Positions 15,209-27,878 of a stretch of DNA of 64,000 bases are shown here, piece after piece. Within the stretch, counting starts at the first letter, position 1. Every line of letters starts with the position of its first letter. Both the position numbers and the translations under genes were made by a program. The DNA lies in contig OZ241986.1 of assembly GCA_965204375.1 (NCBI GenBank), positions 3,168,001-3,232,000 on the forward strand, given 5' to 3'. The notes beneath the pieces were generated by a model. It ran no database searches. It worked only from the letters and a program-made list of their open reading frames with translations, and was not told the origin of the DNA. The stretch is from Candidatus Latescibacterota bacterium. Its GTDB lineage: Bacteria > Latescibacterota > UBA2968.

Positions 15209-16120
15209 CTAAACGGCAACTTGTGTGCGTTCTTTCAGCAATCGGGCCTTCTCAATCAGTTGTGGCAGGCCATCTTCCTGAATTTTTTCAATATCTTCTT
15301 TATACTTCAACACGCATCCCAATGTCGCATCAACCGTCTGCGGGTCCAATTCTTCAACTCGCATAGCCATTAAAGCCAGTGCCCAATCAATCGTTTCGGC
15401 AACACCGGGTTTTTTGTAAAAATCGCGATTGCGCAACAGTTGCATAAATCCACAAACCTGTTGTGCCAATTCGTCCTGCACACCCGACACACGCGACCGC
15501 ACAATATCCATTTCTTTGCTAAACGAGGGATAATCAATCCACAAATACAAACACCGGCGCTTCAGTGCGTCGTGCAACTCGCGCGTGCGGTTGGACGTAA
15601 GCACGACAAACGGCACCTGCATCGCTCTTATCGCACCAATCTCGGGAATCGTAATCTGAAAATCGGACAACACTTCGAGCAAAAACGCTTCAAACTCTTC
15701 ATCCGATCGATCCACTTCGTCAATCAACAACACCTGTTGCTTTTCTGCGCTACCCTCAAGAGCCGACAAAAGGGGACGCTTGAGCAAAAAATCTTCGCGA
15801 AAAATATTTTGACCAATTTCGGCCTTGTCGATTCCTCGCGCTTCTTCGAGCCTTAGCTCCAGCATCTGGCGCGGATAATTCCATTCGTACAATGCCGTAT
15901 TTGCATCAATGCCCTCGTAGCATTGCAATCGAATCAACTCAGTATCAAAAATACCGGCCATAACTTTGGCCACTTCTGTCTTTCCAACGCCTGGTTCCCC
16001 CTCCAGAAAAATTGGTTTGCCAAGAGACTGCGCCAAAAAAATCGTCGTTGCCAATGTGCGGTCCGTGATATACCCCTGCTCGGCAAACCGCTCTTCAACA
16101 TCTTCAATAGAATTCAGCAT
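15209..16120 (-). CDS. coxD: CoxD-like MoxR family AAA+ ATPase
   Basis: Walker A 'GEPGVGKT', 'LQCYEG', Walker B 'LLIDEVD', 'ELHDALKRRC'. Confidence 0.88.
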   Translation of the reverse strand: MLNSIEDVEERFAEQGYITDRTLATTIFLAQSLGKPIFLEGEPGVGKTEVAKVMAGIFDTELIRLQCYEGIDANTALYEWNYPRQMLELRLEEARGIDKAEIGQNIFREDFLLKRPLLSALEGSAEKQQVLLIDEVDRSDEEFEAFLLEVLSDFQITIPEIGAIRAMQVPFVVLTSNRTRELHDALKRRCLYLWIDYPSFSKEMDIVRSRVSGVQDELAQQVCGFMQLLRNRDFYKKPGVAETIDWALALMAMRVEELDPQTVDATLGCVLKYKEDIEKIQEDGLPQLIEKARLLKERTQVAV

Positions 16121-16653
16121 AATAACCTTTCTTTTGCGTACATTTCGCCGTACTGCGCCACCCAAATTTGCAATGCCTCTCTGGTCGTATCAAAAGCCAG
16201 ATCATTCCAGGGAATATCCTGGGGGGCAAATGTAGCTACAGCCTGCGATTCAAAATTGCCTTCCAACTTTCCGCCCACAACCCGCCCAGTATAAACAATC
16301 AGCACCACCCGTTCCCCTTCATAAGACAACACGCCGAGCAACTCGCCGATCTCAACATCTAACCCCACTTCCTCGCGGGTTTCGCGCACAGCCGCGACAT
16401 CGGTTGGCTCGCCTGCATCCACATATCCGCCGGGGAACACCCACTTGCCAAACCCGGGATCAATATTGCGCTTGAGCAAGACAACGCCACCATCGAGAGT
16501 TACAATAACCCCGGCTGCTACTTTGGGGTCGAGATAAGCCACAAATCCACACGACGGACAACACGGTCTCTCCCGATCTTCAACTGCTTTTACAACCAGC
16601 AAAGTCCCACAGCGCTCGCAAAACCGGGCTTCGGATTTTATGCAATTGGGCAA
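16114..16653 (-). CDS. NUDIX hydrolase with N-terminal zinc ribbon
   Basis: CxxC...CxxC and Nudix box 'GGYVDAGE....AAVRETREEVG'. Confidence 0.9.
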   Translation of the reverse strand: MPNCIKSEARFCERCGTLLVVKAVEDRERPCCPSCGFVAYLDPKVAAGVIVTLDGGVVLLKRNIDPGFGKWVFPGGYVDAGEPTDVAAVRETREEVGLDVEIGELLGVLSYEGERVVLIVYTGRVVGGKLEGNFESQAVATFAPQDIPWNDLAFDTTREALQIWVAQYGEMYAKERLLC

Positions 16654-16708
16654 AGGGATTAACCACCTTATTTCTTATTAATACTAAATAGTAGTATGTT
16701 CAAAGGGT

Positions 16709-16737
16709 AAAATACATAGGGATGTGTTTTGGGTCAA
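16709..16737 (-). promoter_or_regulatory. sigma70-like promoter for NUDIX-coxD-coxE-xdhC
   Basis: TTGACC-17 bp-TATTTT on minus strand. Confidence 0.55.
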
Positions 16738-16739
16738 CG

Positions 16740-16802
16740 AAAAAGCCCCGAATTTGAATTCGGGGCAAAAAAAATGGGAACCGGGTCGCGGGCCGGTTCC
16801 CA
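16740..16802 (-). terminator. two tandem intrinsic terminators downstream of phoU
   Basis: TGGGAACCGG/CCGGTTCCCA stem + U8 (16767-16802); GCCCCGAAT/ATTCGGGGC stem + U5 (16740-16766). Confidence 0.85.
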
Positions 16803-16824
16803 AGAGGGAGAATACGTCGTGCTT
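16767..16824 (-). ncRNA. candidate Pho-regulated small RNA (~57 nt) in the phoU 3' region
   Basis: Pho-box-like array and -10 element upstream, single-stranded AUUCUCCCUCU, strong terminator, no ORF. Confidence 0.5.
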
Positions 16825-16829
16825 GGAGT

Positions 16830-16885
16830 ATAATATCATCGCCGCGTTACAATCGCGTGTCATTTACGCGACAAAACCGTTAATT
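16830..16885 (-). promoter_or_regulatory. Pho-box-like array (4 units) plus extended -10
   Basis: AATTAAC/TTGTCGC/ATGACAC/TTGTAAC at exact 11-bp period; TGaTATTAT hexamer starts 10 bp after the last unit. Confidence 0.65.
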
Positions 16886-17561
16886 ATTCGCCCTCCCGCA
16901 ATTCCTCCTGTTGATGTCTCACAATGCGACCTTGCACGAGATAGACGACATTTTCGGCAATATTGGATGAATGATCGCCAATGCGCTCCAGATGCCGGGA
17001 CACGAGAATAAGCAAAATAGCCTGATCTACAGTTGAGGGAATACCCGTGTTTAAGTACGTCAACAACTCGCGGAAAATTTGATCGCGCAAGGCATCCATA
17101 GTATCGTCAATGCGGCGCACCTTATTGGCCAATTCCACATCGCGATTGACAAAAGCATCCAGAGCATCCCTGACCATGCCTCTTGCCAAATCGGCCATCC
17201 GCGGAATATCGATCAGCGGTTTCAATTGCGGCATCTGATTGAGCAAACGGGCGCGCTGCGCGATATTCACCGCCTGATCATTGATGCGCTCGAGATCGTA
17301 ATTAATCTTAATAATACTCGCCACCAGGCGCAAATCGCCAGCCACGGGTTGCTGCACAGCCAACACCCTCAAACACTCTTCTTCTATCGCCACTTCCCAA
17401 TCGTCGATGTGATGCCCACCTTCTTCAACCACATCGGCGAGGTGGTTGTCGCGTTCTACAAGTGATTGTACTGCCTGTTCAATCGACTCTTCCACCGCAC
17501 TGCCCATCTTCAACAACTCACCTTTGAGGTGGTCGAGATGCTGGTCAAGGGTACGCTCCAT
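16884..17561 (-). CDS. phoU: phosphate signalling complex protein PhoU
   Basis: 'QQPVAGDLR', 'DLERIND.A.NIA', 'LERIGDH..NIAE'; follows pstB. Confidence 0.95.
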   Translation of the reverse strand: MERTLDQHLDHLKGELLKMGSAVEESIEQAVQSLVERDNHLADVVEEGGHHIDDWEVAIEEECLRVLAVQQPVAGDLRLVASIIKINYDLERINDQAVNIAQRARLLNQMPQLKPLIDIPRMADLARGMVRDALDAFVNRDVELANKVRRIDDTMDALRDQIFRELLTYLNTGIPSTVDQAILLILVSRHLERIGDHSSNIAENVVYLVQGRIVRHQQEELREGE

Positions 17562-17578
17562 AATAATCACCCCGGTTA

Positions 17579-20118: not shown

Positions 20119-22347
20119 TCAAATCCTGCTATACTTCTCGCGCAAACGCTGCCGCACCACTTCAGCCAGTGTATTGACCAAAAAAGTAAGCGCCGCCAGC
20201 AAAACCCCTGTCAAAAACAACACGCGATAAAGCGTACCTTCATGGGGTGCTTCGGGAATCTCCACGGCGATATTGGCCGACATAGTCCGCATGCCATTAA
20301 AAATGGTCCAATCCAGAATCGGCGTATTGCCCGTAGCCATCAACACAATCATCGTCTCGCCCACAGCGCGGCCAAAACCAATCATAGTCGCGGAAAAAAT
20401 ACCCGGGCTCGCCGTGGGCAACACCACGCGGATAGCCGTCTGCCAGGGCGTTGCGCCAAGCGCGAGTGATCCAGCGCGCAGATGCTGCGGTACACTCGAC
20501 AGAGCATCTTCGCAGATCGTGTAAATAATAGGCACCACGGCAAATCCCATCGCAAAGCCCACCACGAGACAATTGCGCTGATCGTAGCGCGTACCCGTTG
20601 TGCCGAGCAGCCAGCTTTGAAAATTGCCGCCGAACAAAAGCGATTCGGCTACTGGACCGAGTGCAAACGACAGATAGAGCGCGACCAACGCGATGCCAGC
20701 CAGCAAAGTTAGAATCCAGTGATCCGGTACTCTGCGTGCAAAATCCTCAGATATCTGCCCCCAGCCCCAGGCGCATATCACCACAACAATGGGCACACAG
20801 GGTAATAACAACAGCGCACCAACAATTCTCGTTTCCAGCAGCGGAGCCAACCACAAACCAGCCAAAAATCCCAAAATCACGCTGGGAAGCGAGGCCATCA
20901 ACTCCACCACAGGTTTGACCACACCACGCACGTTGGGAGACGCAAAATCCGATGTGTAAATCGCTGCCAGAACAGCCAGAGGCAGCGCGAATAACATGGC
21001 GTAAAGCGTGCCCTTAAATGTGCCAAATACCAGGGGTACGATACTCAACTTAGGCTCAAAATCATCCGACCCGCCCGTGGATTGCCACACGTATTGAGGC
21101 TCCGTATATCCCTCGTACCACACTTTGCCAAAAAGTGTTTGTAACGTCACTTCGGGATGTGGATTTTGAAGGTCGAAATCCGTTATCTGCCCCGACCTGC
21201 TCACAGTCAAAAAGCCATTTGCTTTTGGCGCGAAAGCCATGGTTTGGATGGGGCCATCACCGCGCAATTGAAAAAACGTTTGTTCCGATGTCATGTGATG
21301 CAACGCAACCATCCCCGATACATCGCTCGATAAAAACTGTTTGTCGCGAGCAGACGACGCCAGTGCAGTCACCGCCATCTGATGAGACTGCAAAGTGTGG
21401 ATCTTTTTGAACATCTTTTTATTGTCGTCCTCACCCGTCCTGACGGGCATCCAGACGGACACATGACCGCCCACATCGCCCACAACGAGCGACACATCAC
21501 CCAGCACAAAATCCAGCGCAGTCACCTCCTGATCGGAAACCCGAAAATAATCCAACAGCCTGGGATTGGAACTCGCCCGTCCGATTTCCCACCGAAATAC
21601 TTCACCGCGGTCTGTGCCCACCAGAACATAGCGTCCCGACTTCACCACGGCCCCCACTCTGGCGCGCCCTTTGATCTCAGCGGTCAAATCGTATCTGCGA
21701 ATCGTCGTTTTGCCATCACCTAAAAGACCGCGCTGTGTTTCGGAAATTCCCAAAACGAGTTGCCCGGAATCCGAAATGCCAAGTACTGTGCCTCGGGATT
21801 TTCCATCGTGCCGAAATACGAGATGCACAAGAGCCTTATCAGTTAGATTCATCGACGACTCAACGGAAAAAGACGGCGTCACAATCTGCTTTCCCTCCGC
21901 ATCGTAATCCACGGCAAAATTCACGCGGCAGCCCAGCATTGTACCGTCATCCAGACCCAGGCCAACATGCGTGTTATCCAGAGCGCGATAAGCTACCTGA
22001 ATGCGCCGTCCCTGTAGTTCAGGGGGATACACAGACTTTGTCACTGATTTTGTGCTCATATCCACAAAATCAATCCCCGCTTCATGCACGACAAACATCA
22101 CAGCCTGATAGGGGTCAACCCCCGTACACAGGACGGGCTGACGGTGCGAAAAATCAAAAGTATGCGCCCTGGACACGCTCGGCTTCAAAAACAGGGGATA
22201 GGACTCCATCAACACAAAAAGAAAAATGCCCAGCACCGACAGGATCACCCCGATGCCGCCGGCAGTGATCACCCACTGCCCGGTGCGATCCATCAGGCGT
22301 GCGCCTGGCGTAATACCGGGCAATTGTCGCTTTGATGCTGATTCCAT
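20119..22347 (-). CDS. pstC: phosphate ABC transporter permease PstC (long form with WD40-like periplasmic domain)
   Basis: 'KVWYEGY..P.YVWQS', 'KPVVELMASLPSV', 'GRAVGETMIVLMATGN'. Confidence 0.93.
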   Translation of the reverse strand: MESASKRQLPGITPGARLMDRTGQWVITAGGIGVILSVLGIFLFVLMESYPLFLKPSVSRAHTFDFSHRQPVLCTGVDPYQAVMFVVHEAGIDFVDMSTKSVTKSVYPPELQGRRIQVAYRALDNTHVGLGLDDGTMLGCRVNFAVDYDAEGKQIVTPSFSVESSMNLTDKALVHLVFRHDGKSRGTVLGISDSGQLVLGISETQRGLLGDGKTTIRRYDLTAEIKGRARVGAVVKSGRYVLVGTDRGEVFRWEIGRASSNPRLLDYFRVSDQEVTALDFVLGDVSLVVGDVGGHVSVWMPVRTGEDDNKKMFKKIHTLQSHQMAVTALASSARDKQFLSSDVSGMVALHHMTSEQTFFQLRGDGPIQTMAFAPKANGFLTVSRSGQITDFDLQNPHPEVTLQTLFGKVWYEGYTEPQYVWQSTGGSDDFEPKLSIVPLVFGTFKGTLYAMLFALPLAVLAAIYTSDFASPNVRGVVKPVVELMASLPSVILGFLAGLWLAPLLETRIVGALLLLPCVPIVVVICAWGWGQISEDFARRVPDHWILTLLAGIALVALYLSFALGPVAESLLFGGNFQSWLLGTTGTRYDQRNCLVVGFAMGFAVVPIIYTICEDALSSVPQHLRAGSLALGATPWQTAIRVVLPTASPGIFSATMIGFGRAVGETMIVLMATGNTPILDWTIFNGMRTMSANIAVEIPEAPHEGTLYRVLFLTGVLLAALTFLVNTLAEVVRQRLREKYSRI

Positions 22348-22349
22348 AA

Positions 22350-22444
22350 GAAGTGTGAAGTGTGAAGTGTGAAGTGTGAAGTGTGAAGTGTGAAGTGTGA
22401 AGTGTGAAGTGTGAAGTGTGAAGTGTGAAGTGTGAAGTGTGAAG
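22350..22444. repeat. perfect heptamer tandem repeat (GAAGTGT)x13.6
   Basis: 13 full copies + GAAG, two bases from the pstC start codon. Confidence 0.97.
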
Positions 22445-22712
22445 GCGATCCGCAGAATGAAGGCGAGTAATTCGAGCCTGAACGCAGAACGCGAGTAATT
22501 TGAGCGTTTTACTGAGCGTTTTACGCAGATAAAAAAGAGGGGCTGGAGGGTTGATGCGGGCTAACCACTAACCACTGACTGCTAACCGCATAACAGCCTT
22601 TGAGAAGGGTGAAGGGTGAAAGGCAGGTGAGACGTGAGAAGGGTGATGAGGCAGTAGCCCTGGGGCGGTGTTGGGTGGACTTCTTACTTCTTACTTCTCA
22701 CTTCTAACTTTC
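22445..22712. repeat. stacked degenerate short repeats in the pstS-pstC spacer
   Basis: ATCCGCAGA element; duplicated GCGAGTAATT and TGAGCGTTTTAC; (CTAACCA)n; (GAAGGGT)n; five (ACTTCTN)-like units next to the pstS stop. Confidence 0.8.
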
Positions 22713-23672
22713 TTACTGTAACTTTTCGAGTTCTTCTTTAACCACCTGATAGGGCACGGGCATATAGCCATCTTTAACCACAATCGCTTGCCCTTCTTGG
22801 GAAAAAATGAACTTACAAAACTCCCTCACGAGAGGATCGAGAGGTTTATTGGGTGCCTTGTTAATGTACAAATACAAAAAACGCCCCAGAGGATAAGATC
22901 CATCTATAACATTTTCTATCGTGCCCTCTCTAAAGGATTCGCCAGTTTCCAATGCCAGAGGTACGACGCGCACGCCAGATGTCTTGTAACCAATGCCACT
23001 ATAACCCATGCTATACCTGTCTTCGGCCACGCCCTGCACCACCGAGGCAGACCCGGGTTGCTCTTTTACTTCATCTTTGAAATCGCCCTTAAACAGCGCG
23101 TGATCTTTGAAGAAACCATAAGTACCCGATGCGGAATTGCGCCCGTAAAGACTGAATGCGGCATTTTTCCAATCGCCTTCCAAACCCAACTGCCCCCATC
23201 TCGCAATATTTTCCTTATATTCACCGCGGCGCGTCTTGGAAAAAATCGCATCTACCTGCTGCAAAGTCAACCCTTTTAGGGGATTGTCTTTATTGACAAA
23301 AACAGCCAGTGCATCCAGCGAAGTTCGCAACACTGTGGGTGGATAGCCAAAATGCTTTTCAAATTTGTCTATCTCCGAAGCCTTCATCGGACGCGACATA
23401 GGCCCGAATTGCGCGGTACCTTCAATCAGCGCGGGAGGCGCAGTACTCGACCCCTTACCCTCGACCTGAATTGTCACACTGGGATAGTGTTTGCGAAAGC
23501 CTTCCAACCACAGCGTCATCAAATTATTCATCGTATCTGACCCAATGCTGTTGGTACTTCCTGAAATCCCACTCACTTTTTGATACGCGGAAACAGGCGA
23601 ATCCTGCTGTGCCTGAGCCGTAGCCTGTGTTAAAACAGCCACACATGCAATCATATAAATAAATCTGGTCAT
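22713..23672 (-). CDS. pstS: phosphate-binding protein PstS
   Basis: 'GSDTM', 'GKGSSTA', 'PMSR', 'GRNSASGTY', 'YPLGRFLY'; signal peptide. Confidence 0.96.
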   Translation of the reverse strand: MTRFIYMIACVAVLTQATAQAQQDSPVSAYQKVSGISGSTNSIGSDTMNNLMTLWLEGFRKHYPSVTIQVEGKGSSTAPPALIEGTAQFGPMSRPMKASEIDKFEKHFGYPPTVLRTSLDALAVFVNKDNPLKGLTLQQVDAIFSKTRRGEYKENIARWGQLGLEGDWKNAAFSLYGRNSASGTYGFFKDHALFKGDFKDEVKEQPGSASVVQGVAEDRYSMGYSGIGYKTSGVRVVPLALETGESFREGTIENVIDGSYPLGRFLYLYINKAPNKPLDPLVREFCKFIFSQEGQAIVVKDGYMPVPYQVVKEELEKLQ

Positions 23673-23735: not shown

Positions 23736-23775
23736 GTTACAATTATGTGACGAAAACACGACATTTATGTGATAA
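23736..23775 (-). promoter_or_regulatory. Pho-box-like array (4 units) upstream of pstS
   Basis: TTATCAC/ATGTCGT/TCGTCAC/TTGTAAC at exact 11-bp period. Confidence 0.75.
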
Positions 23776-23782
23776 CCCCTGC

Positions 23783-24736
23783 TCAAAACCTAACATATAG
23801 CGTCAGCCGGGGAATCATCTCAATATCTACATCTGGAGCCTGAAAATTTGTGGCCATCACATTGGGCATAATGTGAATATCCTTTACCGGCTCAATGTCA
23901 AGCCCTCCGAGAAAGCAATATTCCCCATCGTCGTCAGACTTATCGTCTGGATCAAAAAAATCGCCGCGAGCAAACACCTTTATCTTCTCGCTAAACTGTC
24001 CTGCGCCGAACAGTGAAAGCCCCCGCACCTGTGCGGTATGGTTGCGCCATTGCACAAAGCCTTCCAATCCACCGTGGAAATTTTTCTTTTTCAATCCGAT
24101 AAACGTAGCAAAAGTCGTGCGATCTCGATTATCTGGGCGTTTTTCCCAATCTACATAAGTCGTCACATTCAGGGTACCGGGATTAAAATGCAGCAGACCG
24201 TAAACTTTCTTGTATTGATCTGTCTCGGACTGCTGCCCGCTGCCATTGGCCAGCATAATCTGGGCATTTAACTTTCCAGCTTCATCCAATCGCGTGCGAT
24301 ATGCAATGCCTATATCAGCCGAAGAGGCAACCTTTTTTCGATCCATGAGGGTCTTCTCGACCGAGCGATACCCCCAAACAGACTCCGATACGTTCCATGT
24401 TGGCGTACCCGACAGTCCCATATAGAGCGCATGGCCATTTTTGCGATAGCGCAAATACGCGTGCTTTACAAAAGGTTCTATTTTCTTTTCACTATTAAAT
24501 CCCGCATCTTTGGCCTCCAGCCGAACCCGTCCAGAAAAAGCATCATTCCACTTCAGGTCATGGGTGAGATAAATGCGTCGAAACCGAAAGCCATTCTCTT
24601 CTTCTCCATTTCCCCTGACGATATAATAATCGGCAAACATAACACCCTGAAGCCTGGTATCTACAGCTTCACTCCGTCCCGCCAATACAAAACCCAAACA
24701 CAACAGTATTCTCCAAATTGCTTTACAAATGCACAT
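23783..24736 (-). CDS. outer-membrane porin, probably phosphate-selective (OprO/P-like)
   Basis: Signal peptide; 'NGFRFRRIYL', 'FVKHAYL'; amphipathic strands; C-terminal Phe; upstream of pstS. Confidence 0.7.
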   Translation of the reverse strand: MCICKAIWRILLCLGFVLAGRSEAVDTRLQGVMFADYYIVRGNGEEENGFRFRRIYLTHDLKWNDAFSGRVRLEAKDAGFNSEKKIEPFVKHAYLRYRKNGHALYMGLSGTPTWNVSESVWGYRSVEKTLMDRKKVASSADIGIAYRTRLDEAGKLNAQIMLANGSGQQSETDQYKKVYGLLHFNPGTLNVTTYVDWEKRPDNRDRTTFATFIGLKKKNFHGGLEGFVQWRNHTAQVRGLSLFGAGQFSEKIKVFARGDFFDPDDKSDDDGEYCFLGGLDIEPVKDIHIMPNVMATNFQAPDVDIEMIPRLTLYVRF

Positions 24737-24796
24737 GTGCTCTCCCTTCGAATAGGCAAATAAACGGCGTTCTCCGCGACAAGACATCGCCATAGT

Positions 24797-24858
24797 GTTA
24801 CAAATCACCTACAAAATCGTTACGGATCAGTCACGGAATTGTGACATTTGTGTTACAA
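24797..24858 (-). promoter_or_regulatory. Pho-box-like array (6 units) upstream of the porin
   Basis: TTGTAAC/ATGTCAC/CCGTGAC/CCGTAAC/TTGTAGG/TTGTAAC at exact 11-bp period. Confidence 0.85.
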
Positions 24859-24957: not shown

Positions 24958-24997
24958 TTGTAGCCAAATCGTAACTCATTTGTAACTCCAACTCAAC
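24958..24997 (+). promoter_or_regulatory. Pho-box-like array (3-4 units) upstream of the divergent TonB receptor
   Basis: TTGTAGC/TCGTAAC/TTGTAAC/(ACTCAAC) at 11-bp period on + strand. Confidence 0.7.
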
Positions 24998-25091
24998 ATA
25001 GTCAAACTAAATTCGCACAGAATTATAAAGAACACTTACTTCTGTCGCGGAAGTTGTGGTTTAAACCGTATTAATGAAAGGATACGTCGTT

Positions 25092-27878
25092 ATGAAAAGA
25101 ATGTTATTGCTCTTACTTGCTCTTGGTTTCACCAGCGTTTCAATCCAGGCACAGGACATGGGCAAAATCCAGGGTGTTGTCGTGGATGCAGAAACAGGAG
25201 AACCGCTCATCGGCGCCAACATCGTCATCAAAGACGAAACTGGCGTACCAATGTATGGCACCTCCACCGACCTCGATGGTCGCTTTGTCCTCGCGGCTCC
25301 AACAGGCACGCACAACGTCGAATTTAGCTACATCTCTTATGCCACAAAAACAGTCACCGACGTCGAAGTCAAAACCGACGCCCCCACATCAATCAATATT
25401 TCACTGCCGCCAGAGGCCATGCAGGCCGATGAAATTGTCGTCACGGCCAAAGCCGTACAAGACAGCGAAGTATCGATGCTGGGCATTCAGCAAAAAGCGC
25501 CCGTGGTCACGGACGGCATCAGCGCCGAATTGATGAGCCGCGCCGCGTCTTCCGATGCGGGCGATGCACTCAAGCGCGTAACGGGGATCACCATTGTAGA
25601 TAAATTCGTGTACGTGCGCGGCCTGGGCGAACGCTATAGCAACACGCAAGTCAATGGCGCAGATATTCCCAGTCCCGAGCCAAACAAACGCGTTGTACCC
25701 ATGGACATTTTCCCCGCTGGCCTTCTCGAAAATATCCAGGTATCCAAAACCTTTTCTCCCGATCAACCAGGAGATTTTTCAGGTGGCTCCGTACAGATCA
25801 AAACCCGCGACTTTCCCAGCGAATTTACATTTTCGGTTTCCACATCAGCCGGGTATCACAGCCAAACCAGTTTCAAAGATATTCAGACCTACGATGGAGG
25901 CTCCTGGGACTTTTTGGGTGTGGATGACGGCACGCGTTCTCTGCCCGAACAGATCAAAACTCAGGCAGCTGAGGAACCAGTGCGCAAAAGTGGGCGTTTT
26001 ACCCCAGAAATCGGATTTTCCTCTGAAGAAATCCAGCAATTTGGGCAGGCTTTTGCCAACGTATGGCAGCCCAAAACCAGAACCGCACCAGTCAATCAAG
26101 GCTATAGCATCAGCATTGGCAACGCCATTGGCGGAAGCGAACGGGAACTCGGTTATGTATTCTCATTTACTTATGACAACAGCTTTAACAATAGAAGTGA
26201 AAACTGGAACTCCTTCCGCATCACTGCTGACGCATCGGGCGAACAAATACTCACGCCTTTTACCTCGTATGAAGTAAATAGCACGACCAACAATATTCTG
26301 TGGGGCCTGTTGTTCAACAGTAGCCTGCGGTTATCTCCCCTCCATAAAATCAGCTTAAAAACCCTCTTTAATCGCAACACCGACAACGAGGCACGAACCT
26401 ACACCGGTTACAATTCTGACCGGGGCACTGACCTCCGCGACTTCCGCTTGCGATTTGTCGAACGCGGTATTTTCACGGGGCAACTGTCTGGAGAGCATCA
26501 CATTCTCAATTCCAATATCGATTGGCTGTACAGTCTATCCAAAGCCACACGCGACGAACCCGATAACCGCGAAGTACTCTACGAAGACCGCAACGGCAGT
26601 TGGACCTTTTTTGACATCACGCAAAGCGGCAGCCGCTTCTTCTTTGATCTGATTGACAATGCCCAAAGTGGCAAAATCGATTGGACAATTCCCTTTACGG
26701 GTTTCAACAGTCTCTCTTCTAAAATTAAACTGGGTGGCAAAGCTCTCTCCAAAGACCGCACCTTTGATGCCCGCCGCTTTCGCTTTGAGCAATCCAGCGG
26801 CATCCGGCGACACGTTGATCTGACACTCGACCCCGAAGAAATTTTTATTTCAGACAATATCGCGCCCGGTCGATTTGAACTGCGCGAAACCACCCGCAAT
26901 GTCGATAACTACAGTGCCTCGCAGACCACCCGGGCAGCTTACGCGATGACCGACCTCCAGTTCTCTGGCCAATGGCGTTTTGTGGGAGGACTGCGCGTTG
27001 AGCAATCCAAACAGGAACTTACATCCTTTGATCCTTTTAGCACCACTGTTGACCCTATCCAGGTAACTCTGGACAATACAGATCTCCTGCCCGGACTCAA
27101 TCTGGTCTATAAACTGAATGACCGCACCAATTTCCGCACGGCTTACTCGCGTACATTGGCGCGTCCGGATTTTCGCGAACTCGCGCCTTTCGAATTTACG
27201 GACTTTATCGGCGGACGGGCGGTCTCGGGCAATCCCGAACTCCAGCGCAGTTCCATCGACAATTTTGATTTTCGATTCGAAATGTTTCCGCGCCTGGGCG
27301 AACTGGTAGCGATCAGTGCTTTCTACAAAAAATTCCACGATCCCATTGAGCAGATCATTCGCCCCACCGCACAACTCAGTGTCACATTTCAAAATGCCAA
27401 AGCAGCAACAAACTACGGTGTCGAATTTGAATTTCGGCGCCGCCTCGACATACTATCCCCATCCCTTGAACCCCTATCCATCAACACCAATGTCACACTG
27501 GTCAAATCGCAGATTGAAATCAATCCCGACATTGGCGTTCAGACATCCAACGAACGCGCCCTCCAGGGCCAATCTCCCTATGCGGTCAACGTAACCCTCG
27601 GCTACGACAAACTCAATCAAGATTTTCAAGCCAACATGCTCTACAATGTATTTGGCAGACGGATCAGCGAAGTAGGCGCGCAGGGGTTGCCCGATGTTTA
27701 TGAACAACCCCGACATCAACTCGATTTTAATATGAAGAAAAAATTCGGTCACTTCGCGTTAAAGGTATCGACGAAAAACTTGCTCGACAGTAAAGTACTC
27801 TTTAAGCAAAAGGAAGGCGTTTTCCGAGAATACAAGATCGGACGCTCCCTCTCGCTTGGCATAAGTTATGAATACTAA
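25092..27878 (+). CDS. TonB-dependent receptor
   Basis: 'GEPLIGANI', plug 'YVRGLGERYS', 'RPDFRELAPF', 'GNPEL', 'LQGQSPY'; C-terminal aromatic residue. Confidence 0.92.
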   Translation: MKRMLLLLLALGFTSVSIQAQDMGKIQGVVVDAETGEPLIGANIVIKDETGVPMYGTSTDLDGRFVLAAPTGTHNVEFSYISYATKTVTDVEVKTDAPTSINISLPPEAMQADEIVVTAKAVQDSEVSMLGIQQKAPVVTDGISAELMSRAASSDAGDALKRVTGITIVDKFVYVRGLGERYSNTQVNGADIPSPEPNKRVVPMDIFPAGLLENIQVSKTFSPDQPGDFSGGSVQIKTRDFPSEFTFSVSTSAGYHSQTSFKDIQTYDGGSWDFLGVDDGTRSLPEQIKTQAAEEPVRKSGRFTPEIGFSSEEIQQFGQAFANVWQPKTRTAPVNQGYSISIGNAIGGSERELGYVFSFTYDNSFNNRSENWNSFRITADASGEQILTPFTSYEVNSTTNNILWGLLFNSSLRLSPLHKISLKTLFNRNTDNEARTYTGYNSDRGTDLRDFRLRFVERGIFTGQLSGEHHILNSNIDWLYSLSKATRDEPDNREVLYEDRNGSWTFFDITQSGSRFFFDLIDNAQSGKIDWTIPFTGFNSLSSKIKLGGKALSKDRTFDARRFRFEQSSGIRRHVDLTLDPEEIFISDNIAPGRFELRETTRNVDNYSASQTTRAAYAMTDLQFSGQWRFVGGLRVEQSKQELTSFDPFSTTVDPIQVTLDNTDLLPGLNLVYKLNDRTNFRTAYSRTLARPDFRELAPFEFTDFIGGRAVSGNPELQRSSIDNFDFRFEMFPRLGELVAISAFYKKFHDPIEQIIRPTAQLSVTFQNAKAATNYGVEFEFRRRLDILSPSLEPLSINTNVTLVKSQIEINPDIGVQTSNERALQGQSPYAVNVTLGYDKLNQDFQANMLYNVFGRRISEVGAQGLPDVYEQPRHQLDFNMKKKFGHFALKVSTKNLLDSKVLFKQKEGVFREYKIGRSLSLGISYEY

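Follow-up and report, generated by a model that had tools for sequence, protein, structure and literature searches.

A candidate small RNA gene with a Pho-box-like promoter between phoU and a NUDIX gene in a Latescibacterota genome

The non-coding DNA behind phoU, the final gene of a phosphate-transport cluster, was analyzed in a Candidatus Latescibacterota bacterium (GenBank assembly GCA_965204375.1) within a window of 64,000 nucleotides, which is the whole stretch from position 3,168,001 to 3,232,000 of contig OZ241986.1; coordinates below are those of the window unless a genome position is given. The analysis revealed what is probably an independent gene, driven by the phosphate regulator, whose minus-strand product (start near 16822, end near 16767) would be a regulatory RNA of about 56 nt that acts in trans, with the mRNA of a TonB-dependent receptor as candidate target. 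An earlier reading of the same DNA (the original prediction) had proposed a stand-alone RNA of about 57 nt with Pho boxes, a CU-rich 5′ part and a terminator; comparative evidence supported this core, whereas the porin mRNA proposed as its target gained no such support. The stand-alone RNA is favored because its boxes keep a fixed register, the discriminator varies, 18 bases are invariant, the stem carries compensatory changes, and the boxes, RNA and hairpins (together, the module) persist away from phoU.

A phased box array with a fixed distance to the −10 element

Directly after the phoU stop codon lie four heptamers at an exact 11-bp period, followed by an extended −10 element whose hexamer is placed 10 nt past the last unit, both as originally read (Table 1). 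The unit sequence resembles the E. coli pho box. The same motif, as had also been noted, is found upstream of pstS (four units) and of the porin-like gene (six phased units), and a matrix trained only on these 10 units was used to score four phased units on both strands of the 6.34-Mb genome (about 12.7 million positions; genome mean −32.9, standard deviation 10.2). The site behind phoU, which was absent from the training set, scored 22.4; the four-unit array is more than chance, because it ranked ninth genome-wide with a matrix from which it had been excluded. Ranks 1–3 were the training sites themselves, rank 4 lay 59 nt ahead of an orphan OmpR-family regulator gene whose best family match is PhoB, and rank 5 lay ahead of the divergent TonB-dependent receptor gene.

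The geometry of a last unit, 10 nt and a −10–like hexamer was common to the pstS, porin, regulator-gene, receptor-gene and candidate RNA promoters. As in PhoB-type promoters, the candidate RNA promoter combines 7-bp direct repeats at an 11-bp period, like those of the bacterium's own pst promoter, with fixed box-to-−10 spacing and no −35; the only −35–like match in a consensus scan was unit 3 paired with GATGAT. According to PMC10294691, PhoB binds direct repeats, and PhoB-activated promoters require strict spacing to the core promoter. The array ahead of the orphan regulator gene (genome positions 1,116,483–1,116,526, minus strand, locus L079) shows the same 10-nt geometry with the −10 box TAGTAT. 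The orphan regulator gene itself occupies genome positions 1,115,749–1,116,417, and the best PhoB-like regulator of this genome is encoded at 3,679,205–3,679,876.

An unpaired 5′ region followed by two terminators

The predicted RNA folded with an energy of −18.7 kcal/mol, and its nucleotides 1–20 were unpaired with probabilities of 0.83–1.0. The 10-bp hairpin with its U8 and the second terminator were found as originally described, whereas the unstructured stretch came to about 20 nt rather than about 22 nt. Both hairpins scored as terminator-like and folded as drawn, with z = −5.2 for the 96-nt stretch, and thus have the GC-rich stem and U-run of intrinsic terminators. Beyond both of them the NUDIX gene has a promoter of its own, again in line with the earlier reading.

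That reading had also held the region to be free of open reading frames (ORFs). A mechanical ORF of 59 amino acids (16684–16863) does overlap the candidate RNA, as the only one, but a small protein was rejected as an explanation: the frame extends across both terminators, three genomes from two other genera lack its ATG, and the length of the T-run ranges from 7 to 9. The candidate RNA was accordingly regarded as non-coding.

Conservation of the promoter, the single strand and the stems

With a 501-nt query, the region was recovered from each of the 20 remaining genomes in the genus. A covariance model (R1), built from an alignment of the RNA and both hairpins (A1), matched 24 of the 53 genomes of the order, with one copy per genome and in three genera of one family: all 21 genomes of the genus, including the window's own (G000), and 1 of 1 and 2 of 3 genomes in two other genera. 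In G000 the single copy scored 114.9 bits and the next matches 22 and 21 bits. The model had no match in three further genera of the family (0/6 genomes) or in the sister family (0/22 genomes). Among these 24 carriers, boxes and seed were conserved and the stems covaried, with G011, G017 and G019 as exceptions for the boxes and the 5′ part.

From unit 1 to the −10 box the register was identical, without any insertion or deletion, in all 21 box-bearing genomes. Comparison of the five most divergent copies (G000, G001, G023, G048 and G049) showed 86%, 77% and 83% identity in units 2, 3 and 4, respectively, and 87% in the −10 hexamer, while the 4-nt spacers (27.5% and 57.5%), the 10-nt spacer (46%) and the discriminator (36%, with none of its 7 columns invariant) varied. 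Conservation was lowest in unit 1, with a mean identity of 54.5% across 21 genomes, and the TG of the extended −10 was kept in the genus and absent in the three other-genus genomes examined. Transcription is expected to start 7–8 nt after a −10 box, and it was at this position that conservation began: the first 18 transcribed bases (GCACGACGTATTCTCCCT) were invariant (18/18) across the three genera. Within the pairing region of 21 genomes, GCACGACGTA was invariant and TTCTCCCT nearly so, with one base different in one genome; the proposed seed UCUCCCU was conserved, but the invariant part reaches further 5′ than had been suggested.

In hairpin 1, 99.2% of cells were paired, two pairs carried double changes, and one-sided changes yielded G-U; in the other genera, one or two A-U pairs have become G-C, and four genomes have G-U. 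Such G-U pairs from one-sided changes would fit an RNA of the minus strand only. The second hairpin had its sequence replaced and its fold kept in each genus, with six doubly changed pairs. An alignment fitted to the structure by a model (A2) gave 97.8% paired cells and eight doubly changed pairs, which none of 500 shuffles reached; a plain MAFFT alignment of 22 sequences gave a weak signal (two such pairs; 33 of 500 shuffles as high). Structure by itself would suit a mere terminator, but a mere terminator would explain neither the promoter footprint nor the invariant single strand. Together, a conserved seed with unpaired probability of at least 0.83 and a covarying terminator stem behind it have the form of a base-pairing small RNA.

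Linkage to the NUDIX gene rather than to phoU

The position behind phoU, given in the original prediction, holds for most of the genus but not beyond; the constant linkage is to the NUDIX gene, which adjoins the module in 24 of 24 carrier genomes. In G001, an insertion of 1.9 kb with other ORFs lies between phoU and the module, and three boxes, the 10-nt spacer, TATTAT and the RNA stay beside NUDIX. G019 has a 3.1-kb insertion. In G048 and G049, the gene upstream of the module encodes a secreted protein of 305–313 amino acids without a Pfam match, and boxes, −10 and RNA remain together; in G049, the phoU end is about 4.1 kb upstream on the same contig. Because the module, where parted from phoU by 1.9 to 4.1 kb, retained its NUDIX neighbor in all four genomes and its boxes in three of them, these arrangements indicate that it is not merely the terminator of pst–phoU.

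DapZ and MicL, like the PhoS RNA of Bacillus, are small RNAs that lie in a 3′ untranslated region (UTR), end at the upstream mRNA's terminator and have their own promoter, located where the coding region ends or beyond it. The candidate RNA has this arrangement in most of the genus, where the boxes begin at the phoU stop, and departs from it in G001, G019, G048 and G049, which have intervening genes. G001 also contains a remnant behind phoU (L021:3300–3400), with box-like units, TATACT and, directly after it, a different hairpin and T-run, whereas the intact module lies 1.9 kb off, which points to either a duplication or an insertion within the promoter.

Table 1 Features of the module, its neighbors and its candidate targets (window coordinates)
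Feature	Position	Strand	Remarks
Predicted small RNA, ~56 nt	16767..16822	−	20 unpaired bases, 10-bp hairpin, U8
Pho-box-like unit 1	16879..16885	−	AATTAAC; overlaps last two bases of phoU stop codon
Pho-box-like unit 2	16868..16874	−	TTGTCGC
Pho-box-like unit 3	16857..16863	−	ATGACAC
Pho-box-like unit 4	16846..16852	−	TTGTAAC; ends exactly 10 nt ahead of −10 hexamer
10-nt spacer, unit 4 to −10 hexamer	16845-16836	−
Extended −10, TGaTATTAT	16830..16838	−	TG 16838-16837; hexamer TATTAT 16835-16830
Discriminator, −10 hexamer to predicted start	16823..16829	−	7 nt
Single-stranded pairing region, GCACGACGUAUUCUCCCUCU	16803..16822	−	~20 unstructured bases
Hairpin 1, terminator stem-loop of predicted RNA	16775..16802	−	10 bp; T8 at 16774-16767
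Second intrinsic terminator	16740..16766	−	hairpin 16766-16745, T5
Sigma-70-like NUDIX promoter	16709..16737	−	TTGACC, 17 nt, TATTTT; begins 3 nt past second T-run; conserved in all three genera
Zn-ribbon NUDIX hydrolase gene	16114..16653	−	Pfam NUDIX and Zn_ribbon_Nudix; directly downstream of module in every carrier
phoU	16884..17570	−	final gene of porin-pstSCAB-phoU cluster; TIGR02135 219.8 bits, cut-off 130.25; stop TAA 16886-16884
Four phased Pho-box-like units upstream of pstS	23736..23775	−	TTATCAC/ATGTCGT/TCGTCAC/TTGTAAC
Six phased Pho-box-like units upstream of porin-like gene	24797..24858	−
Three phased Pho-box-like units upstream of receptor gene	24958..24986	+	conserved at 13/13 orthologous loci
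TonB-dependent receptor gene	25092..27878	+	Pfam; likely true start ATG 25092 (conserved); ATG 25074 not conserved
Candidate target site, AGGATACGTCGT	25079..25090	+	Shine-Dalgarno and spacer of receptor mRNA; predicted to pair with RNA nt 3-14
Porin ribosome-binding site AGGGAGA	24741..24747	−	target proposed originally
Second complementary 9-mer (porin), GGAGAATAC	24706-24714	−

Candidate mRNA targets

The original prediction had the seed pair with the AGGGAGA in front of the porin start. This ribosome-binding site is real, and it was kept in 12 of the 14 genomes of the genus that were aligned with a porin start region, but the pairing was unsupported beyond the genus and ranked 189th of 10,661 start regions by duplex energy. 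The porin was set aside as a target: in G049, G048 and G023, the porin ribosome-binding sites differ while the RNA sequence is unchanged.

In a contiguous-pairing scan, in which the 20-nt single strand was paired (Watson–Crick, with at most one G-U) with positions −30 to +10 of 4,892 crudely called genes, the TonB-dependent receptor was joint first with 12 bp (two genes at 12, seven genes at 11 or more), with the caveat that its site had first been noticed in a scan of the window. Receptor orthologs were present in 13 of the 31 genomes of the family (E ≤ 1e-60). In all 11 ortholog genomes with the canonical RNA 5′ part, the site AAAGG(GG)ATACGTCG formed a conserved island in a variable leader, and duplexes between each genome's own RNA and site reached −16.1 to −18.4 kcal/mol versus about −6 to −9 for shuffled start regions, with 1.5% of shuffles or fewer matching them. 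In G011 and G019, the RNA is without CGACGUAU, the receptor spacer is different too, and the duplex is at shuffle level. These comparisons support, with moderate confidence, complementarity of the RNA to a conserved and co-varying site in the receptor mRNA, whose ribosome-binding site is a better candidate target than that of the porin.

A search of positions −30 to +5 for exact 9-mer complements of the last (3′) 14 nt of the seed gave 40 genes versus 4 to 44 in 20 shuffles; these matches reflect Shine–Dalgarno likeness, not specificity. The two best 11-nt ribosome-binding-site matches (genes at genome positions 2,907,306 and 466,795) had no orthologs in the other two genera and were dropped as core targets, and the 13-nt exact complements elsewhere in the genome numbered two, about chance level (our own estimate is about 1.7). 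An identical gene of 412 amino acids, present in G000 in at least seven copies (e.g., at 628,796, 1,033,418 and 1,589,909), one of them truncated, is probably an insertion-sequence transposase; its ribosome-binding site, GGAGGGAGAAAGG, complements the CU-rich stretch of the RNA.

RNA data, Rfam and Hfq

Fifteen RNA runs held part of the region, all as assembled contigs, which carry no starts, ends, strand or level; 4 of the 22 listed runs were examined. Contigs from relatives in X2 and X5 stop at 16816 and 16806, respectively, and resume near 16673, and those in X11 cover the flanks only. The public runs that hold the region are coral and sponge metagenomes. A search of Rfam 15 gave no family at the gathering score (best RF02837 with 20.4 bits versus 49.5, and RF00519 with 19.4 versus 41). 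Hfq (PF17209) was not found in the 96%-complete G000 genome by a search that found it in 5 of 14 control genomes, and the candidate was not classed as an Hfq-dependent small RNA.

A working model and its alternatives

In the model that we favor, a PhoB-like regulator of the OmpR family would bind the four phased units under phosphate limitation, in place of a −35, and would recruit RNA polymerase to the TATTAT located 10 nt downstream, as presumably happens at the pstS, porin, receptor and regulator-gene promoters. Transcription would halt at hairpin 1 and U8, while the second terminator would catch read-through and insulate the NUDIX promoter. The unpaired 20-nt 5′ region GCACGACGUAUUCUCCCUCU would then pair with ribosome-binding regions of mRNAs, apparently without Hfq; on the receptor mRNA, the Shine–Dalgarno sequence and spacer could form 11–12 contiguous pairs with RNA nt 3–15, and translation would be limited. 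A receptor that is co-regulated and whose translation is limited by the RNA would constitute an incoherent feed-forward loop. The pst–phoU transcript could be an additional source of the RNA wherever its 3′ UTR includes it, as is the case for most of the genus.

Several observations weigh against this model. At the promoter, units 2 and 4 match the consensus better than units 1 and 3 do, and unit 1 has a different sequence in seven genomes of the genus; many PhoB sites of E. coli are described as transcriptionally inert in PMC10294691; and the two PhoB-like regulators, with 259.8 bits and, for the orphan regulator, 237.4 bits, are both under the curated PhoB cut-off of 296.2 bits. The main irregularity concerns G011, G017 and G019, in which the hairpins and UUUUCYCCC are retained while the boxes are degenerate and the 5′ part differs. 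A 794-nt contig from a coral metatranscriptome (X1; 16286–17079) spans phoU, the module and NUDIX, although it could be DNA carry-over and shows neither start nor stop. On the side of the target, when the 21-nt seed was scanned by duplex energy against the 10,661 candidate start regions, predicted targets were no more numerous than for six shuffled seeds, with the receptor at only rank 801, in contrast to its place in the contiguous-pairing scan. The joint change of RNA and receptor site in G011 and G019 is probably a single evolutionary event, and ten genomes of the genus carry the RNA without a receptor ortholog (E ≤ 1e-60); therefore, other targets must exist.

Some of these observations would suit an RNA without a promoter of its own, that is, a conserved 3′ UTR of the pst–phoU mRNA that ends at the operon terminators and is perhaps processed, the heptamers being inert or decoy sites. 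For most of the genus the module does directly adjoin the phoU stop; in three genomes the RNA core is present but a clear box array is not; E. coli has many inert PhoB sites according to the source cited above; and the coral contig extends from phoU across the module. We nevertheless consider this account unlikely, given that boxes, exact 10-nt spacing and −10 are kept in three genera while spacers and discriminator vary, that in G001, G048 and G049 the boxes travel with the RNA to places 1.9 to 4.1 kb from phoU or behind another gene, and that conservation begins exactly at the expected start, 7–8 nt after the −10.

The invariable position directly upstream of NUDIX (24/24 carriers) would also be expected of a phosphate-controlled leader or attenuator of that gene, in which transcripts from the box promoter stop at the terminators and sometimes read through, the short RNA being a by-product; the Pho-box RNA PsiR1 of Synechocystis is thought (PMC4195498) to be co-transcribed with its downstream gene. 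However, every genus has two strong tandem terminators, the second with new sequence but the same fold, and NUDIX has its own conserved TTGACC...TATTTT promoter 3 nt past the second T-run. The RNA showed no alternative antiterminator fold, its 5′ 20 nt being unpaired at 0.83 or above, and the NUDIX start region paired poorly with it (−5.4, rank 10,177 of 10,661). A leader function thus seems quite improbable. Very unlikely in our view is that the conserved 18–20 nt act as DNA or as a protein-binding RNA site (e.g., by titration) with a coincidental receptor complementarity, which would agree with the lack of a genome-wide target excess over shuffled seeds, with the failure to find Hfq in G000 and with the ten genomes that keep the sequence without the receptor, but not with a receptor site that stands as a conserved island in a variable leader, is complementary rather than identical to the RNA, changes where the RNA 5′ part changes, and is joint top of 4,892 genes.

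Other features of the cluster

The minus-strand gene order in the window is porin-like gene, pstS, pstC, pstA, pstB, phoU, 230 nt of non-coding DNA and the Zn-ribbon NUDIX gene. The NUDIX protein has an N-terminal zinc ribbon, and models of NAD+ diphosphatase and RNA pyrophosphohydrolase match it weakly, under their cut-offs. PstC (20119–22347, minus strand) is unusually long, with 742 amino acids and a beta-propeller/WD40-like segment (about residues 220–410) ahead of the permease domain. Between pstS and pstC (22350–22444) lies a perfect tandem repeat with 13.6 copies of a 7-mer (CACACTT on the coding strand), and an imperfect 7-mer/21-mer repeat (22679–22724) straddles the pstS stop.

A second Pho-box locus

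Rank 8 of the box scan was a second candidate for a short transcript from a Pho-box promoter (genome positions 1,423,124–1,423,247 of G000, plus strand; L078:625–748), which directly follows a gene of the histidine-phosphatase family (His_Phos_1, SixA-like). Its build, which parallels that of the first candidate and counts in favor of the model, comprises four units, 10 nt, TATTTT, 7 nt, a single strand of about 19 bases (CAUCAGUCAGCUUCCGCGU) and a hairpin followed by U7. Among the 20 aligned loci of the genus, 18 contain the RNA body (G015 and G020 are without it), three of the 18 being without units 3–4 owing to a 45-nt deletion; outside the genus the RNA body was not found. The single strand matches the receptor leader of G000 over 11 bp with one G-U (25046–25056), the third best of 4,892 genes; the pairing is shorter in receptor leaders of the G015 type, and we treat it as a lead only. 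The motif GTCGCGGA, complementary to this second RNA, is conserved in the receptor leader (25046–25056, plus strand) and in the porin leader (near 24766–24776, minus strand).

It is conceivable, though we hold it to be rather doubtful, that the family runs part of its phosphate-starvation response via at least two Hfq-independent Pho-box small RNAs, both acting on the receptor leader (at 25079–25090 and 25046–25056), so that the regulator would both induce the receptor and throttle its translation. If true, no riboregulator and no RNA-based feed-forward circuit would have been inferred for Latescibacterota before these.

Significance and comparison with known systems

To our knowledge, Latescibacterota have no cultured, genetically tractable representative, and no small RNA of the phylum was found described in the literature searched. 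If the model holds, it would provide a defined regulator-binding motif with a predicted phosphate regulon (pstSCAB-phoU, porin, TonB-dependent receptor, regulator gene and two small RNAs), a covariance model that describes a new RNA family, and a concrete RNA–mRNA pair that could be tested in a surrogate host.

Among known RNAs, RF02837 (anti-hemB) and RF00519 (mmgR/suhB) share with the candidate a CU-rich stretch and a terminator hairpin; the matches are weak, and the candidate is a member of neither family. PsiR1 of Synechocystis 6803, a phosphate-stress-induced non-coding transcript with tetrameric Pho-box repeats like those of pstS and phoA, resembles it in having a Pho-box promoter on a non-coding RNA (candidate). 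PsiR1 differs (PMC4195498) in its length of about 500–600 nt, its probable co-transcription with the downstream gene, its potential to encode peptides, and boxes that lie 61–182 nt upstream of the start.

The proposed target recalls OmrA/OmrB of Enterobacterales, which use a conserved 5′ end to pair with mRNAs of outer-membrane proteins close to the start of translation, among them the mRNA of the TonB-dependent receptor cirA (PMC2588501). Control by an OmpR-family response regulator (inferred here) and a TonB-receptor target (a candidate here) would be common to both, whereas OmrA/OmrB answer EnvZ-OmpR instead of phosphate and have no sequence similarity to the candidate, which has no Rfam match; in addition, they need Hfq (PMC12692685), for which no gene was found in G000.

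The closest analogue, and a close functional parallel, is PhoS of Bacillus velezensis and B. subtilis. As described in PMC11522486, this experimentally shown RNA of 66 nt is transcribed from a separate promoter, with four Pho boxes and an extended −10, at the phoPR 3′ end; its C-rich 5′ seed is 100% conserved, and a Rho-independent terminator follows. PhoS has no sequence relation to the RNA predicted here, belongs to another phylum, is controlled by PhoP with a different box, and lies behind phoR instead of phoU, and the candidate target in Latescibacterota is an outer-membrane receptor. Nevertheless, the predicted RNA would be, like PhoS, a short RNA (about 56 versus 66 nt) encoded directly behind the final gene of a phosphate-regulon operon, with a four-box promoter of its own, an extended −10, a conserved C-rich seed and a terminator; if the present gene is confirmed, the location of a Pho-box small-RNA gene where a phosphate operon ends, known from Bacillus PhoS, would have arisen independently in a distant phylum.

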